Assembly: GCA_964550425.1 (NCBI GenBank)
Contig: CAZJZB010000001.1
Span: forward strand, 3,509-67,508
Reading direction: 5' to 3'
Source: an uncultured Candidatus Saccharibacteria bacterium
GTDB lineage: Bacteria > Patescibacteriota > Minisyncoccia > Phycocordibacterales > Phycocordibacteraceae
DNA length: 64,000 bases
In this document: piece after piece, positions 4,687 through 32,047 of the stretch
Position numbering within the stretch: position 1 is the first letter of the stretch
Layout: each line of letters opens with the position of its first letter
The notes under the pieces: generated by a model
Seen by the model: the letters and a program-made list of their open reading frames with translations, nothing else
Told to the model about the DNA's origin: nothing
The model's database searches: none
Position numbers and translations under genes: made by a program

Positions 4687-5148
4687 TCAGCCAGCGCCTT
4701 CTTTTGTGCGCAAAGCGCCGACAATATCGATGATGAGATCCCTGACGACCATCATCACCGGTATGAGTCCGAGGACGAGCAAGAAACTAAAGCTCGTCAT
4801 CCAGAATGCAGCGCCGTCCTGGATCTTTGTCGGAGCGGAAATCGCTCCGAAAACGAATCCAAAACAGATTGCGTTGAGCGTCATGAAGAATACATTTCCG
4901 CCTTCATTGAGGCGTTTGCCATTCAACATGTGCTCGATGAACTGGACAAAAATTACCACTCCAATGAAGAGCGCAATGAGAAACACTCCCAACAAAAGGA
5001 TTGACCCCTTGCCCCCGGACACGCCCCGCGCGAGCGCCGCCCATGGGTTGTATGTCACAGATATCTCGTTCGCACCCCATACGGCGCTTAGCGAGATCAA
5101 AATACCTGCAGGAATCATGATCATCCTATTTCCGATGCTCATCTGCAC
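4687..5148 (-). CDS. hypothetical polytopic membrane protein
   Basis: Four predicted hydrophobic helices; no known motif. Confidence 0.5.
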   Translation of the reverse strand: MQMSIGNRMIMIPAGILISLSAVWGANEISVTYNPWAALARGVSGGKGSILLLGVFLIALFIGVVIFVQFIEHMLNGKRLNEGGNVFFMTLNAICFGFVFGAISAPTKIQDGAAFWMTSFSFLLVLGLIPVMMVVRDLIIDIVGALRTKEGAG

Positions 5149-22490: not shown

Positions 22491-22500
22491 AACAATTTTG

Positions 22501-22572
22501 TGCGGGCGGCGGGAGTCGAACCCGCGCTGACTGCTTGGAAGGCAGCCGTCATAGCCGTTAGACCACGCCCGC
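22501..22572 (-). tRNA. tRNA-Gly (anticodon TCC); CCA not encoded
   Basis: Hand-folded cloverleaf: acceptor GCGGGCG/CGCCCGC, anticodon stem GCTGC/GCAGT, loop CTTCCAA, T-arm GCGGG-TTCGACT-CCCGC. Confidence 0.75.
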
Positions 22573-24328: not shown

Positions 24329-24460
24329 GGCCTTTAGAAATATGGCTCATTCGTTGAGTATACTCTAGGACCACTCTTAGAAATAGTTATTAGACGCATG
24401 TCCTTTATCCCCAGTATCCCCAATGTTATCCACTTACGACACGGAACCAAAAGACACACA

Positions 24461-24486
24461 AAAATGGCTCAATCGAGCCATTTTTG
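24461..24486 (-). terminator. hairpin terminator downstream of tRNA-Gly(GCC) and its trailer
   Basis: AAAATGGCTC-aatc-GAGCCATTTT, followed by a T-run on the minus strand. Confidence 0.5.
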
Positions 24487-24639
24487 CGTTTAAGAAACTT
24501 TAAGTCAAATCTATCTTTCGGTGCGGGGGAGAACCGTGATTACACTTTCGGCCACGGATAATTTTCTCGCCGCCGCTCGAAAATTTCCTCGGCCCCGCCT
24601 CGCGGTTTTGCCTGTTGGCAAAACATCGCTCCGGCATTC

Positions 24640-24657
24640 GATTCTCCCTACTCGTCC
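24640..24657 (+). repeat. 18-nt inverted copy of the tRNA-Gly(GCC) 3' end (T-loop to acceptor)
   Basis: TTCGATTCTCCCTACTCG is identical to tRNA positions on the opposite strand, 20 nt beyond the tRNA 3' end. Confidence 0.7.
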
Positions 24658-24676
24658 CATCCTCGCTATGCTCGTC

Positions 24677-24750
24677 TGGTGCGAGTAGGGAGAATCGAAC
24701 TCCCATCATCTGATTGGCAACCAGATGTTCTACCATTGAACCATACCCGC
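24677..24750 (-). tRNA. tRNA-Gly (anticodon GCC); CCA encoded
   Basis: Acceptor GCGGGTA/TACTCGC, D-arm GTTC/GAAC, anticodon loop TTGCCAA, T-arm GGGAG-TTCGATT-CTCCC, then ACCA. Confidence 0.8.
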
Positions 24751-24970
24751 GCTAGGCGACATGATACCATGTCGCCAGTTTTTATTTCCAGTGCAGTATT
24801 CTTGAATTAGTCCGAACGCATTTCGCCGCCTGCGGCGGTAAAGAAGTCCCCCCGCGAAAATTCGGAAAGGCGGCGGGCCGCGCCGCTGATTCAGCAGAAT
24901 CACCTACTGGGTGACAATTTCAAGTTTTTCTTTGGCGGCATTCAATTATGAATTTACAAAATAAATACAA

Positions 24971-25853
24971 CTACGCCTTAGGAGTTTCAATATTTCCTCC
25001 CTCAATCGGGTTTACTTCCGGCTTTATTTCACCTGGCGGAATTTCACCCTCCGGAACTTCTAACTTTTCCTCTGGCTTAGGTTCTTCGGGCTTCTCCTCT
25101 TCCAGCTTCTGTTTTTCTTCTTCCAATTTTTTGTCCACGCGCTCGGTTGCTTCTTTGGTTAAGTCCTCATCAAATTTTTTCAAAAGGTCTGGTAATGCTT
25201 CAAGAATTTTTGGCAGTAGTTTAATTCCTTCTTTGAAAGCTTTCGCCAAAGATTGCGCCATTTCCGGATTGAGAGAACCCATTGACTTGCTTTCAACATT
25301 TCGTCCCTCAGGAGTTTTCCCGCTCTTAAAAATGCTTTCAAAGTCACGGGGATTAAGTCCCTCAAATTCCTTGAACACTTCGTCAAGTTTTTCTTGTAGA
25401 ATTTTTTCTTTTTCTTCGCGGATAAGCCGTTCTTTTTCCTGTTGGCTGATAAGTTCCTCTTTTTGTTTTTCTAATCCTTCTTGTTCGGCTTTGAGTTTTT
25501 CCAATTTATCTTTTTCTGAAAACACACTTGGCGGGTCTTCTTCTGTTGGCGGAAGTCCAAGTTTTTCTCTCGCGGCGTTTAGGGCAGATTTTGTTCCTTC
25601 AACAGATTCTGATAAACGAGTTATTTCTTCTTGCTTGGCCTTGGCTTCGCCCTCTAAATTTTTAAGCTGTTCTTCCGGCGATAATTCAGGTTCTTCTGCT
25701 ACTTGTTCTTGCCCTTCTTCTGCTTTTAATTTTTCCAATTCTTCCGGTGTAAGTTCGCCCTCCAGTTTTTTCCCAGCATTAACATCAGCACCAACCTCGT
25801 TGGGATTTAGTTCTGCATTATTCGTATTTGGAGCACCTTCAAATTTTGGCATA
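24971..25853 (-). CDS. Glu/Lys-rich coiled-coil protein (hypothetical)
   Basis: EK-rich heptads. The Ser-rich + strand ORF 24948..26213 is its codon-complement shadow. Start chosen at MPKFEG. Confidence 0.45.
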
Positions 25854-25986
25854 GTTTTTGTTGAATGTATTAAAAAATTTTCTTCCCCCAAAATTAAAAT
25901 ATGGTTCGAGCCGATGTTTTTCTCCGGGTTCTTTTGCGGTTTTGAGCGGTATTGTTCGCACTTCCATTTTAGCATAATTCCTTTCT

Positions 25987-26003
25987 GGTGCGCCCGCCAG
26001 GAC
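25987..26003. repeat. direct partial copy of the tRNA-Arg 3' end, including a CCA
   Basis: TGGTGCGCCCGCCAGGA compared with the tRNA 3' end TGTGCGCCCGCCAGGA at 26141..26156; ~135 bp apart. Confidence 0.55.
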
Positions 26004-26142
26004 CGCGATTACGCTTATCGAAACTTACAGTTTCAGTACACCTTGCGGATTTTCTGTTCGCTTCGCTTCATAAAATGCTCGCAAGGTCTTCGATTCCTGT
26101 TCGCACGCCTCCCAGGCGTGCTTCGGGGCACATTCTCGCTTT

Positions 26143-26215
26143 GCTCGTATGTGCGCCCGCCAGGAATCGAACCCGGAACCTCTTCGTCCGAAGCGAAGCG
26201 CTCTATCCGTTGAGC
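26143..26215 (-). tRNA. tRNA-Arg (anticodon TCG); CCA not encoded
   Basis: Acceptor GCGCCCG/CGGGCGC, D-arm GCTC/GAGC, anticodon stem CTTCG/CGAAG with loop CTTCGGA, T-arm CCGGG-TTCGATT-CCTGG. Confidence 0.75.
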
Positions 26216-26231
26216 TACGGGCGCGTAGCGA

Positions 26232-26313: not shown

Positions 26314-27777
26314 ATGCACTATCGTATTCCGAATGAAGTTGCAAAGGTGGGTGATGGCCTGCGCGGCGCTGGATTTGAGTCATATCTTGTCGGCGGATGC
26401 GTTCGCGACCTTGTTATCGGGCGAGAACCCAAGGATTGGGACATTACCACTAATGCAACACCGGAGCAGATTCAGGCCGTATTTCCCGACTCTTTTTACG
26501 AAAATGATTACGGCACAGTCGGAGTGAAGACGGGCTCAGATGATTCTCGCCTTTCCATCATTGAGGTAACTCCCTATCGCACCGAATCCGCCTATTCCGA
26601 TAAGCGCCGGCCGGACAAAGTAGAATTCGGCACTTCCCTTCCAGAAGACCTCGCGCGCCGCGACTTCACCATAAATGCCATTGCACTAGACGATTCTAAA
26701 GGACACATAATTGATCCCTACGAAGGTCAAAAGGACATAAAGGACAAAATGGTACGAGCAGTCGGTAACGCCTCCGAGCGACTCAATGAAGACGCTCTAC
26801 GCATGCTGCGTGCGGTCCGTTTAGTCGCTGAGCTTGAATTCGGTATAGAAAGTAATACCGCAGCCGCCATAAGCGAAAATAGCAAGCATTTAAGACATGT
26901 TTCACGTGAAAGGATTCGTGATGAGTTCATTAGGATATTGAATTCAAGCCAGCCGATGAATGCTCTTGTTCTCGCACAGCAACTTGGCATCCTGGAATTC
27001 ATTGTCCCTGACATTATTCGCGGCATTGGCGTTGAGCAGAACCAGGCCCATTCATATGACGTTTTCGGACATAATCTCCGGACTATGCAGCATGCGGCTG
27101 ACAAAGAGTGGGGATTTGATATCCGTCTTGCTGGTCTCTATCACGACATTTCAAAACCGGAGACCCGTCGTTGGTCTGAAGAGAAAAAGGACTGGACATT
27201 CCATGGTCATGAAGTTGTTGGTTCACGTGTAACAAAGAAAGCCCTTGAAGATCTACATTTTTCACGCGAAACAATAGATAAAGTCGTTAAATTAGTACGA
27301 TGGCACATGTTTTTCTCTGATCCAGAGCAAATTACACTCTCCGCTGTGCGCCGCATGATAAAGAACGTTGGCGAAGAAAATATATGGGACTTACTCAATC
27401 TCCGTATCTGCGACCGTGTCGGGACTGGTCGGCCAAAGGAACAGCCATTTCGGTTCCGCAAGTATAAAGCGATGGTTGACCAAGCGCTTCGCGATCCAAT
27501 ATCTGTATCTATGCTTAAGACAGACGGTAGGCATATTATGGATAAGTTTCATATGAAACCAGGACCTAAAATAGGATGGACACTCAATGCTCTTCTTGAG
27601 GAAATACTTGATGATTCTGATAAAAATACAGAGGAATATCTCGATAAAAGGACAGAAAACCTACTTAAAATGCCTGAAGATGAGCTAAAGAAGCTCGGAG
27701 AGGCGGGGAAGTTGCGTCGTGAAGCAGCTGAAGATGAGGAAATAAAGCATATAATGGAGAAATATCACGTCTGTTAG
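26314..27777 (+). CDS. cca: CCA-adding tRNA nucleotidyltransferase with HD domain
   Basis: GGCVRD, RRDFTINA polymerase-beta-like head; HD (HDISK); 487 aa. Confidence 0.85.
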   Translation: MHYRIPNEVAKVGDGLRGAGFESYLVGGCVRDLVIGREPKDWDITTNATPEQIQAVFPDSFYENDYGTVGVKTGSDDSRLSIIEVTPYRTESAYSDKRRPDKVEFGTSLPEDLARRDFTINAIALDDSKGHIIDPYEGQKDIKDKMVRAVGNASERLNEDALRMLRAVRLVAELEFGIESNTAAAISENSKHLRHVSRERIRDEFIRILNSSQPMNALVLAQQLGILEFIVPDIIRGIGVEQNQAHSYDVFGHNLRTMQHAADKEWGFDIRLAGLYHDISKPETRRWSEEKKDWTFHGHEVVGSRVTKKALEDLHFSRETIDKVVKLVRWHMFFSDPEQITLSAVRRMIKNVGEENIWDLLNLRICDRVGTGRPKEQPFRFRKYKAMVDQALRDPISVSMLKTDGRHIMDKFHMKPGPKIGWTLNALLEEILDDSDKNTEEYLDKRTENLLKMPEDELKKLGEAGKLRREAAEDEEIKHIMEKYHVC

Positions 27778-31066: not shown

Positions 31067-32047
31067 TCAGTTGCGGCCTTTCCCGTGATATTTTTTGTGA
31101 ATTTCGCGGAGGTGGGAGTCGGTAATATGCGTATAAATTTGGGTCGTATTGATGGAAGCGTGGCCAAGGAGCTGTTGAACTGAGCGGATATCGGCGCCGT
31201 TACTGAGCAAATCAGTGGCAAATGCGTGGCGGAGCGTGTGTGGTGTGACGACATTTGTGATGCCGGCACGCGCGACGTACGACTTCAGGTGCCGTTGGAT
31301 ATCGCGCGGAATGATGCGATGCAATTTGTTCGGCCGGCCGTCGACAAAGAGCGCTTCCTCCATATCTTTTCTCGCTTTGAGATAGTCACGCACGGCCTCT
31401 TTGGCAGAAGGGGAGAGGAAAACGACACGGACTTTCTCACCTTTGCCGCGCACCGATAATTCATCGCGTGTTAAATCGATATCGGCGTTTAGTGCGCAGA
31501 GTTCGGACACGCGCAGGCCGGTCGAGAAGAGGAGTTCTAAGATTGCGCGGTCTCGCAGATACTGGATTTTCTTGTTCTCGTCGGTTTCTTTCGCCAATGC
31601 CTCCCCGGGCGCTCGCATGAGCCGCTCCAGTTCGGCGGAAGTAATGAGATCAAGTTGGCGCTCGGGAAGTTTCGCTAACTCTATCTTTTCCGGAGAAATG
31701 GCGACAATGTCGCGCTTGCGAAGGAACTTGAGAAATGCGCGCAGAGCGATCATGTAGTAATTCTGGGTCCGGCGCTTCATGGAATCGGCAGCCGTACCCG
31801 GCTGCCGATTGAGCCAAAGGCGGAATTCGCGGATATTTTGCTCGGTGATATCGCCGACGTCTTTTATCTCCATCTGTGCGAAGTAGCGGGTGAGATAATG
31901 GTCATAATTCTCGACGGTCTTCACTGCGCGCCCGCGCTCTATCTCTATATATTCCAGAAATTGCCGTTTCGCTGTTTCAACCCCCATTGATGAGTAGTAT
32001 AGCGCGATATTTGCATATTTCTGCAAGACGTGGTAAGGTAGAAACAT
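31067..32047 (-). CDS. tyrosine recombinase XerC/XerD family
   Basis: R...HTLRHAFATDLL...LLGHASINTTQIYTHI catalytic motifs (R-H-R-Y). Confidence 0.85.
   Translation of the reverse strand: MFLPYHVLQKYANIALYYSSMGVETAKRQFLEYIEIERGRAVKTVENYDHYLTRYFAQMEIKDVGDITEQNIREFRLWLNRQPGTAADSMKRRTQNYYMIALRAFLKFLRKRDIVAISPEKIELAKLPERQLDLITSAELERLMRAPGEALAKETDENKKIQYLRDRAILELLFSTGLRVSELCALNADIDLTRDELSVRGKGEKVRVVFLSPSAKEAVRDYLKARKDMEEALFVDGRPNKLHRIIPRDIQRHLKSYVARAGITNVVTPHTLRHAFATDLLSNGADIRSVQQLLGHASINTTQIYTHITDSHLREIHKKYHGKGRN

Follow-up and report, generated by a model that had tools for sequence, protein, structure and literature searches.

The window analysed here is a stretch of 64,000 nucleotides (nt) of contig CAZJZB010000001.1 (assembly GCA_964550425.1, positions 3,509 to 67,508 of the forward strand), and the subject of this study is a non-coding module that follows the tRNA-Gly(GCC) gene on its minus strand. 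The window is ordinary chromosome, with the genes for PGK, TIM, NusA, ClpP, RNase Y, HU, EF-Tu and ribosomal proteins, and the sequence of this locus was also assembled independently in another sample. Homologues of YraN point to a genome like those of Candidatus Kaiserbacteria (Paceibacteria, Patescibacteria). The tRNA-Gly(GCC) gene, with its CCA encoded, is located at 24677-24750 on the minus strand (ARAGORN; Rfam RF00005, 71.7 bits). Just upstream of it a promoter-like site, TGGAAA-18-TATCAT with a TG extension, was picked up by consensus scan as a pattern match only (24761-24790, minus strand), and the order at the locus is promoter-like site, tRNA, module and terminator. The module covers 24520-24659 on the same strand, about 17-18 nt downstream of the tRNA. 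The terminator, consisting of 15 pairs followed by GTCTTTTGGT (24456-24489, minus strand; terminator scan, inverted repeat I10), ends the unit of tRNA-Gly and trailer, and the assignment as an intrinsic terminator concerns only this end of the stretch. The scan detected no terminator between tRNA-Gly(GCC) and the module in the window, suggesting from the sequence that the module is made as a structured 3′ trailer of tRNA-Gly. A preliminary description of this DNA had placed a terminator before yraN and seen no coding sequence in the trailer; the terminator was borne out at 24489-24456, and only short open reading frames (ORFs) overlap the stretch.

The same description had reported that the 3′ end of the tRNA recurs in inverted form, over 18 nt, some 20 nt beyond the gene. 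Positions 24637-24654 of the plus strand read TTCGATTCTCCCTACTCG and are identical to the T-loop, T-stem and acceptor 3′ strand of tRNA-Gly(GCC); the match is exact (18/18) and extends to 21/23. It forms the inverted repeat I3 (23 nt at 91%; arms at 24637-24659 and 24677-24699 with 17 nt between), which includes a TGG facing the CCA of the tRNA. For this 18-mer with up to 3 mismatches, 0.05 chance matches are expected in the window, and none of 100 shuffles reached 2. The trailer on the minus strand, terminator included, folds far more stably than shuffled sequences (z −5.76), which the plus strand does not (z −1.77). The inverted copy was found to be only one of two: positions ~54-76 of the tRNA, its 3′ end, are copied in both arms of the module, and the direct copy had been overlooked.

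Along the minus strand the module is introduced by the linker GACGAGCAUAGCGAGGA (24660-24676, read from the sequence), which would form the loop of a hairpin between the tRNA 3′ end and the 5′ arm. This linker carries a GAGC-NNN-GCGAG motif, which also caps P3 hairpins in the family described below and is present in the linkers of L004, L009, L028, L216, L222, L254 and the tRNA-Arg element of the window. The 5′ arm, UGGGACGAGUAGGGAGAAUCGAA (24637-24659; I3), is the inverted copy and has a lineage-specific A opposite T69 of the tRNA. Two helices follow, both placed by alignment to the covariance model R1: P2 (24597-24635), with a GCC/GGC base, a GGA/GA internal loop and the hairpin GCGAUGUUUUGCC-AACA-GGCAAAACCGC, and P3 (24550-24594), GGCCGAGGAAAUUUUC-GAGCGGCGGCGA-GAAAAUUAUCCGUGGCC. 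Of the hairpins proposed earlier, GUUUUGCC-AACA-GGCAAAAC is real and equals helix P2b of the family, whereas the pairing of CCGTGGCC with CACGG has no support from covariation in the family, CCGUGGCC being the 3′ strand of P3. An optional insert, AAGUGUAAUCACGG, with the small hairpin GUG-UAAU-CAC, lies between P3 and the 3′ arm (24534-24547; an insertion in the R1 alignment) and occurs likewise in L004, L009, L061, L206, L243 and the tRNA-Arg element. The 3′ arm (24520-24533; R1 alignment) is the direct copy in degenerate form, UUCUCCC--CCGCACC, with the T-stem part UUCUCCC intact and the acceptor part altered by a 2-nt deletion and an ancestral C instead of T; the window copy falls short of the 15-17/17 identity to the tRNA that is typical of 3′ arms in the family. 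Between the direct repeats lie about 150 nt of non-coding DNA, and no integrase gene, integrase remnant or cargo was found between or beside them at the window locus.

A module family behind tRNA and tmRNA genes

Homologues were sought in 80 loci fetched through YraN. Using the window trailer alone as query, nhmmer detected homologous segments of 120-170 nt in about 15 other genomes, located behind tRNA-Gly(GCC), Gly(TCC), Pro(TGG) and Arg(TCG). Other copies had thus been found with the window sequence alone before R1 was built from a 17-sequence alignment, in which the window copy is one of the 17 seeds; this copy scores 110.2 bits against R1 (E 5.9e-31) over the full length of 1-130. R1 gave about 45 further good copies in the 80 YraN loci, nearly all at a distance of 6-70 nt behind a tRNA on the same strand, the 3′ end of which matches the 3′ arm. 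A scan of metagenome contigs with a core-only pattern gave at least 120 stretches, and in 80 loci kept among the matches listed R1 finds 103 copies. Modules stand directly behind tRNAs of about 20 specificities in 58 of these 80 loci. Most of the apparent exceptions are behind transfer-messenger RNA (tmRNA; L279), behind tRNAs that ARAGORN missed owing to group I introns (L268, L280), or in tandem arrays of modules; a few metagenome copies have no recognisable RNA gene upstream. L227 is an array of the form tRNA-module-tRNA-module. Among 249 tRNAs counted in loci unselected for the element, a direct copy of positions 59-73 (at least 13/15 identical, within 300 nt) was present downstream in 38 and upstream in none. 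The hosts are Kaiser-, Taylor- and Vogelbacteria and other Paceibacteria (Patescibacteria, or candidate phyla radiation).

The modules share one design. Each is a non-coding unit of 130-200 nt that shares the strand of a tRNA or tmRNA gene and follows immediately 3′ of it, the order being tRNA, linker, inverted 3′-end copy, two-hairpin core, direct 3′-end copy and, often, a second terminator. In the core, P2 and P3 meet at a three-way junction with the fixed nucleotides ..CGAA AGNCGGAG..CGAGNCGGGG UCG..GUGACCGA.., and the window copy matches the conserved pattern CGAA-NGNCGGAG-P2-CGAGNCGGGG-P3-GUGRCCGA. The helix that closes the core has as its 5′ strand the inverted copy, and as its 3′ strand the direct copy, of the last ~15-23 nt of the upstream tRNA. 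In metagenome copies, the 5′ arm pairs through the discriminator and C74, and often a conserved hairpin with a loop of the CUGC type, Px, interrupts it at the boundary between its acceptor and T-stem parts. Two kinds of linker occur, one a terminator-like palindrome by which the pairing of tRNA end and 5′ arm is prolonged, the other a GA-rich GAGC-NNN-GCGAG loop; the window module has the GA-rich type and is devoid of Px.

Covariation supports the fold. In the 17 seed sequences, aligned by MAFFT without fitting to a model, compensatory changes were observed at 21 of 24 pairs. In the alignment of 103 copies, 95.9% of cells were paired, a fraction inflated by the fitting of this alignment to R1, but the margin is still very large and the MAFFT alignment of the seeds agrees; compensatory (double) changes occur at 23 of 24 pairs. 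The pairs of P2 covary, and all 11 pairs of P3 show compensatory changes among the 103 copies. The covariation score was 0.583, as against 0.158 in shuffles (0/500 reached 0.583) and at most 0.069 with the partners slid. Read on the tRNA-sense strand, G·U or U·G pairs number 73 and A·C or C·A pairs 24; this excess together with the covariation indicates that it is the tRNA-sense strand, in the form of RNA or of single-stranded DNA, that carries the structure. Selection acts on the fold of that strand. K-turn and hammerhead junctions were considered on inspection of the alignments, and the sequence does not fit either.

The Rfam comparison proposed in the preliminary description gave tRNA only. 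With Rfam 15 at gathering and permissive thresholds, the other matches in the window had E-values of 0.17 or above and scores far below the gathering ones, and no module match was obtained for the canonical copies L208, L232 and L227; overall the scans returned only tRNA, tmRNA and group I introns. No Rfam 15 model of group I introns, self-cleaving ribozymes, YrlA or HEARO/omega-RNA motifs matches the window copy. A full-text literature search found no description of such modules, the nearest work being on the group I introns that occur in tRNA genes of Patescibacteria (PMC13011429), and the family appears to be an undescribed kind of tRNA-associated element. Membership of the window copy in a conserved structured family rests on the R1 score, the covariation and the count in 249 tRNAs, and we conclude that the trailer belongs to a large and hitherto uncatalogued family of tRNA- and tmRNA-linked modules in Paceibacteria.

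A chance match, a one-off local duplication or a pseudo-tRNA remnant might still be argued for this locus from the degenerate 3′ arm and from the closest relatives, which lack the element here. The preliminary description had regarded absence of the inverted 18-mer from related loci, combined with a lack of transcript beyond the tRNA, as pointing to a random local duplication, yet the element recurs widely: hundreds of homologous copies have the same layout. With the 0.05 chance matches expected, the 110 bits against a model built from other genomes together with the window seed, the metagenome copies and the covariation, this explanation is refuted and deserves practically no credence.

Comparison of orthologous sites indicates what has been added to them. 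At the empty site of L014, tRNA-Gly(TCC) is followed directly by AAAATTAAAGAGAGGAGTACCATAG; at the filled site of L004, the same native trailer comes after the distal tRNA-end copy, 161 nt further. The window's own site is empty in L322 (YraN 86% identical to that of the window), holds only a core-less version in L323 (85%), where the native trailer again follows the distal copy, and holds a module with the core described above (type A) in L009 (79%). What a filled site has in excess of an empty orthologous one is the module together with a single duplicated tRNA end. An att-site remnant in inverted orientation had been among the earlier suggestions. The direct duplication of the tRNA 3′ end and the insertion seen from empty and filled sites agree with its general sense; the scar of a decayed island does not agree with a compact, recurrent module that has a folded core, lacks an integrase and stands behind tRNAs of all kinds, and the inverted copy is no inverted att site but is built into the module as one of its arms. 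Even at empty sites, the stem of the terminator starts within the last 4 nt of the tRNA (GCAC...GTGC).

Arms, cores and the surrounding tRNA cluster

Arms are local, cores common to modules behind different tRNAs. L058 has modules behind tRNA-Arg, Gly(TCC) and Gly(GCC) whose cores are 74-85% identical, exactly from CGAA to GACCGA, but whose arms are wholly tRNA-specific; L074 is similar. The nearest neighbour of a core is often behind a different tRNA type in another genome, and in L009 the 5′ arm still resembles the Gly(TCC) acceptor while standing behind Gly(GCC). Arms also follow changes of their tRNA. In the window Gly module, the 5′ arm pairs with the lineage-specific T69 and the 3′ arm retains the ancestral C. 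In members whose 3′ arm is decayed in its acceptor part, the complementarity of the 5′ region to the tRNA exceeds that to the arm in 19 cases, falls below it in 2 and equals it in 7. We read this matching as ongoing copy-correction among three neighbouring copies, possibly combined with selection. Descent from a degenerate tandem copy of the tRNA was rejected, since the 5′ arm of the window complements T69 and is not a copy of G4, with which T69 forms a G·U pair, and the loops of Px do not resemble those of anticodons.

A second module, overlooked earlier, lies in the window at 25986-26150 on the minus strand (motif GUACUGAAACUGUAAGUUUCGA; direct repeat D11 and sequence), directly downstream of tRNA-Arg(TCG) (26151-26224, minus strand). 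This type-B module follows the same arm logic as type A with a different core, and has its own inverted arm, Px hairpin and direct copy UCCUGGCGGGCGCACCA. Of 20 type-B-like matches, nearly all follow tRNAs, and some are arranged in tandem with a type-A module (L243, L062). The module behind tRNA-Arg is ~90% identical in three loci, that of the window and those of L019 and L012; the YraN proteins of the latter two share 69-77% identity with that of the window. Among these orthologues, Px shows a compensatory change from GCC/GGC to GUC/GAC, a change in the 5′ arm matches the T-loop variant of L012, and each 3′ arm is identical to the tRNA acceptor strand of its own genome; immediately after the 3′ arm the alignment is lost. 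Core-less minimal versions, of the form A-L-A′-loop-A (A, tRNA 3′ end; L, linker; A′, inverted copy), are present in L022, in L323 and in L019 at Gly(TCC). Such versions speak for arms that are templated locally, as does the correction of arms in the direction of the tRNA.

In some copies the 3′ arm carries CCA where the tRNA gene does not (L263, L204, L219, L253 and the tRNA-Arg module of the window, whose 3′ arm reads ..GCGGGCGCACCA behind a tRNA-Arg(TCG) gene that itself lacks CCA). The asymmetry is 5 against 0 among well-matched type-A copies, with only 4 of them independent, and goes the opposite way in L065, a type-B copy read by eye. As a sign of reverse transcription of mature tRNA it was set aside, the effect being real but weak and L065 a counter-example; it hints at some connection with the ends of mature tRNAs, but too weakly for further conclusions. 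Most tRNA genes of Paceibacteria in the fetched loci (for example L010, L013 and L014) lack CCA and have C-A-N after the discriminator.

Several further observations concern the neighbourhood. A free-standing gene for an HNH-type endonuclease VII lies on the opposite strand between tRNA-Gly(GCC) and yraN in L003 (2426-2866, minus strand), as also in L008 and L012, indicating that this spacer is an insertion hot spot. Between tRNA-Arg and tRNA-Gly(GCC) the window has an ORF for a Glu/Lys-rich protein of 334 aa without Pfam match (24971-25975, minus strand); the two tRNAs are only 30-60 nt apart in most relatives, which marks the ORF stretch as an insertion or variable region. In L005 (~4815-4865), a displaced 3′ fragment of the common tRNA-Gly(TCC) allele, GGTCCGATTCCGGTATCCCGCAC, lies 30 nt downstream of a tRNA-Gly(TCC) gene that represents another allele, with the T-arm GCGGG/CCCGC, a type shared with the window gene at 22500-22572; the arrangement looks like a tRNA gene replacement. 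Single tRNA genes are flipped in place within the conserved Arg-Gly-yraN-Pro-protease-Gly cluster of several relatives: tRNA-Pro in L003, L006, L020, L022 and L027, and tRNA-Gly(GCC) and tRNA-Arg in L016 and L004. Near the tRNA cluster of the closest relative there is a gene for bAvd, an accessory protein of diversity-generating retroelements (L322, 4135-4512), with no link to the modules shown. Upstream of yraN, 24397-24434 on the minus strand reads GTGGATAA-N-GGGGATAC-TGGGGATAAAGGAC, a DnaA-box-like sequence kept even in distant Paceibacteria. A replication origin near yraN was considered and rejected, the cumulative GC-skew minimum at ~24-28 kb being weak and DnaA-like boxes not enriched in the window. 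Modules also stand behind conserved non-coding regions in L240, L228 and L237 (there ~300 nt upstream of the modules), L226 and L272, which share ..GAGTTACCRCGCAC..GCGTGCGA.. and ..AAATAGGTTCGWGC.. and match no Rfam family; these regions may be further unannotated RNAs with tRNA-like ends.

Folding of the transcript and a possible role for the host

The full-length transcript of the window locus has a predicted minimum free energy of −135.7 kcal/mol, with the 3′ half of the tRNA paired with the 5′ arm. When the cloverleaf is enforced and the module closes on itself, the predicted value is −110.1 kcal/mol, about 25 kcal/mol less stable. The tRNA-disrupting duplex would thus be thermodynamically dominant in silico, for the full-length transcript only, and the duplex that the preliminary description had foreseen between the tRNA 3′ half and the inverted copy does dominate the predicted minimum-free-energy fold. 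Of its three suggestions, an uncatalogued small RNA co-transcribed with the tRNA comes closest, given a sense-strand family with a 110-bit member, no Rfam 15 match and no intervening terminator; overall its interpretation is partly supported.

Such a fold raises the question of a conformational switch acting in cis on tRNA maturation, corresponding to the processing or antisense element of the preliminary description, in which the 5′ arm would sequester the tRNA 3′ half, the 3′ arm would serve as a releasing decoy, and the supply of mature tRNA would be set by the choice of helix. Several features of the window copy would suit such a device: the 5′ arm fits the tRNA 18/18, T69 included, beside a degenerate 3′ arm, the tRNA-trapping fold is predicted to be the more stable by ~25 kcal/mol, and the linker loop bears the P3-type GAGC..GCGAG cap, as if the helix of tRNA end and 5′ arm were a designed hairpin. 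The preference of the 5′ region for the tRNA over a decayed arm (19 better, 2 worse) points the same way. In most members, however, the complementary segments are kept apart or broken up by a terminator hairpin or by Px, no conserved link to a regulated gene or ligand was seen, and the downstream genes are unrelated. The tRNA, moreover, would fold co-transcriptionally before the arm is made, and such complementarity is expected anyway as a by-product of arm generation. We consider a switch improbable.

A broader role as a structured RNA of the host is a serious rival, and one compatible with insertion, in view of the conservation in place. The module would then be a native or domesticated spacer, a punctuation or processing signal in tRNA units, or a maturation switch, with a helix resembling acceptor and T-stem that lets RNase P, RNase Z and the CCA-adding enzyme, which the window encodes at 26314-27777, excise the module or define transcript ends, or it would stabilise or insulate the tRNA 3′ end. 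The sense-strand fold with its G·U bias suits this role, as do the ~90% conserved orthologues with compensatory changes and arms following the substitutions of the tRNA. The modules act as spacers in the tRNA array of L227, the site at which Px splits the 5′ arm corresponds almost exactly to the exit of the D and anticodon arms from the coaxial stack of acceptor and T-stem, and five 3′ arms carry CCA behind tRNA genes without it. On the other hand, the distribution is patchy, with ~15% of tRNAs in unselected loci followed by a module and the closest relatives of the window devoid of it at this site. Many copies are preceded by a genuine terminator. Pairing of the 5′ arm runs through the discriminator and C74, in contrast to a tRNA end as recognised by processing enzymes, and such generic enzymes need no identity of the arms to each tRNA; the CCA asymmetry is weak (5 against 0, 4 independent, L065 contrary). 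On balance we regard a host-functional RNA as unlikely to be the main explanation.

Proposed insertion and known systems

The reading that we prefer is a new class of tRNA-end-targeted insertion module, folded on the sense strand, which at this locus would be a co-transcribed structured trailer able to trap the 3′ half of its tRNA; we put its probability at roughly 55%. The module would be non-autonomous and aimed at the segment from T-loop to 3′ end that is common to all tRNA-like genes, and its arm duplex would be a replica of the end of the target gene. The observed order, A-L-A′-core-A in the notation used above, could arise by a single exchange between the tRNA gene and a hairpin or dumbbell form (A′-core-A-linker), a route known from CTX-phage attP, or by two template switches at the tRNA end, a route known from inverted triplications and from quasi-palindrome correction. 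Thereafter, local copy-correction among the three nearby copies would keep the arms matched to the tRNA, and the trailer would either close on itself or, as favoured thermodynamically in the prediction, capture the tRNA 3′ half until processing separates them. This mechanism of arm-making and insertion is put forward more tentatively than the class itself. A stronger form is possible but doubtful: a mobile or once-mobile module homing to tRNA and tmRNA ends, with a dumbbell or hairpin stem that replicates the target and both arms templated anew at each tRNA, so that retargeting is achieved by copying the target rather than through a fixed protein-recognised site, and with a core of type A or B recognised by trans-acting machinery.

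Several points weigh against insertion as the whole account. Exact loss between direct repeats would also yield empty sites, so that the polymorphism points to insertion at some time without proving it recent. Core identity is 0.45 within a contig and 0.41 between contigs; most copies on the same contig are no more alike than random pairs, which indicates that most copies are old. Recent intragenomic transposition is unsupported as a general rule by these values, and only a few close pairs were observed (L058, L074, L281, L227). Strong conservation in situ is not expected of a purely selfish remnant, and the G·U bias also fits a functional RNA. Arms exist without a core, so that the core and the process that makes the arms may be separable. 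As to an RNA role of the module, many members have a good terminator between tRNA and module, which argues against that role for those copies. Finally, the clustered ORFs within 2 kb of ~100 copies include no recurrent enzyme, and the nearest tyrosine recombinase in the window, an Xer-like protein encoded at 31067-32047 on the minus strand, is 6.4 kb away with no link to the modules shown.

Among the same ORFs, the most widespread protein cluster is a housekeeping one present in 6 of 80 loci, and the most frequent near neighbour is a protein of 233 aa with only weak matches to helix-turn-helix domains, below the Pfam cut-off. No reverse transcriptase was found among the ORFs within 2 kb of the ~100 copies; the complement resembling a tRNA primer site in the window consists of TGG, two mismatches and then 18 nt.

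A miniature integrative element moved by a tyrosine recombinase in trans would be the most conventional form of insertion, either with a folded single-stranded attP that mimics the tRNA end, as in CTX phage and integrative mobile elements exploiting Xer (IMEX), or with plain attL and attR of a phage or island. The direct repeat from T-loop to tRNA 3′ end, which is the classic identity block of tRNA-targeting integrases, and the clean boundaries between filled and empty sites are as expected of it, and a single crossover of a circle (A′-core-A-L) within A gives the observed order. Many modules supply their own terminator for the tRNA, the window encodes an Xer-like recombinase, and the spacer with the endonuclease VII gene in L003, L008 and L012 is an insertion hot spot. 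Yet no integrase is adjacent in ~150 copies and no cargo is carried. Two specific core patterns gave no match in the IMG/VR viral contigs, at a sensitivity of only ~14% as judged from the known copies that they recover, and BLAST of the element against phage and plasmid collections gave none; the 14-base pattern GAATCGAANGNCGGAG gave at least 120 chance matches in viral contigs, none upheld by R1. A fixed attP cannot explain arms that differ with each tRNA on common cores, and the distal junction is without the symmetric core-site layout of a tyrosine-recombinase site. We regard such an element as very improbable.

If the family is as we describe it, the Paceibacteria, which have genomes among the smallest and least understood of bacteria, carry dozens of undescribed folded modules, each wired to one tRNA or tmRNA gene through copies of the gene's own end. 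Should the modules be mobile, they would represent an element whose arms copy its own target, with no protein found nearby; should they be host RNAs, they would add a new layer to the architecture of tRNA precursors in organisms with reduced sets of RNases. For annotation, the direct repeats will mislead island finders based on att sites, the inverted copies will mislead the annotation of tRNAs and pseudo-tRNAs, and R1 can be used to annotate the modules.

Of known systems, the tRNA-targeted integrative elements are alike in that a direct duplication from T-loop to 3′ end flanks the insert, which leaves the tRNA intact and often brings a terminator. The modules differ in their size of 130-200 nt without integrase or cargo, in the folded core with an extra inverted copy of the target, in their presence behind all tRNA types with tRNA-specific arms, and in that none was found in viral, phage and plasmid collections. 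The attP of CTX phage and IMEX offers an analogy: there a pair of inverted target copies forms a hairpin imitating the target in duplex form, and one exchange would give A-L-A′-core-A. The module, in contrast, targets a tRNA end instead of dif and has neither a phage genome nor an Xer-type site, and the resemblance is one of logic only. Transposable elements of the miniature inverted-repeat kind (MITEs) and structured repeats such as REP/BIME, BOX, Correia and RUP are likewise short, non-coding, intergenic, hairpin-forming, often co-transcribed and non-autonomous. In the modules, however, the inverted repeats are copied from the target instead of being fixed, the duplication is 15-23 nt long, the position is strictly behind tRNA or tmRNA, and copies within a genome are strongly diverged yet structurally conserved; an origin as a MITE was rejected on the arms that vary with the tRNA, on the length of the duplication and on the core identities within and between contigs (0.45 and 0.41).

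The tRNA-like structures (mascRNA of MALAT1, the viral tRNA-like structures and YrlA) share a helix of the acceptor and T-stem stack and a possible use of tRNA-processing enzymes; the helix of the module differs in being an exact copy of the 3′ strand of the neighbouring tRNA, paired through the discriminator, with a three-way junction in place of the T-loop and no Rfam match. The group I introns of tRNA genes in Patescibacteria (PMC13011429) belong to the same host phylum and are selfish or structured tRNA-linked RNAs from which a homing endonuclease is usually absent, whereas the modules are much smaller units located beyond the tRNA, give no match to RF00028 and are found together with the introns (L268, L280). 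Inverted triplication by template switching, as in duplication-inverted triplication-duplication rearrangements (DUP-TRP/INV-DUP) and quasi-palindrome correction, likewise produces a copy, an inverted copy and a copy beside a hairpin, with arms that are corrected mutually, as may be the case for the 5′ arm of the window with its T69 variant. Template switching explains the arms but not the conserved cores that are common to modules behind different tRNAs.

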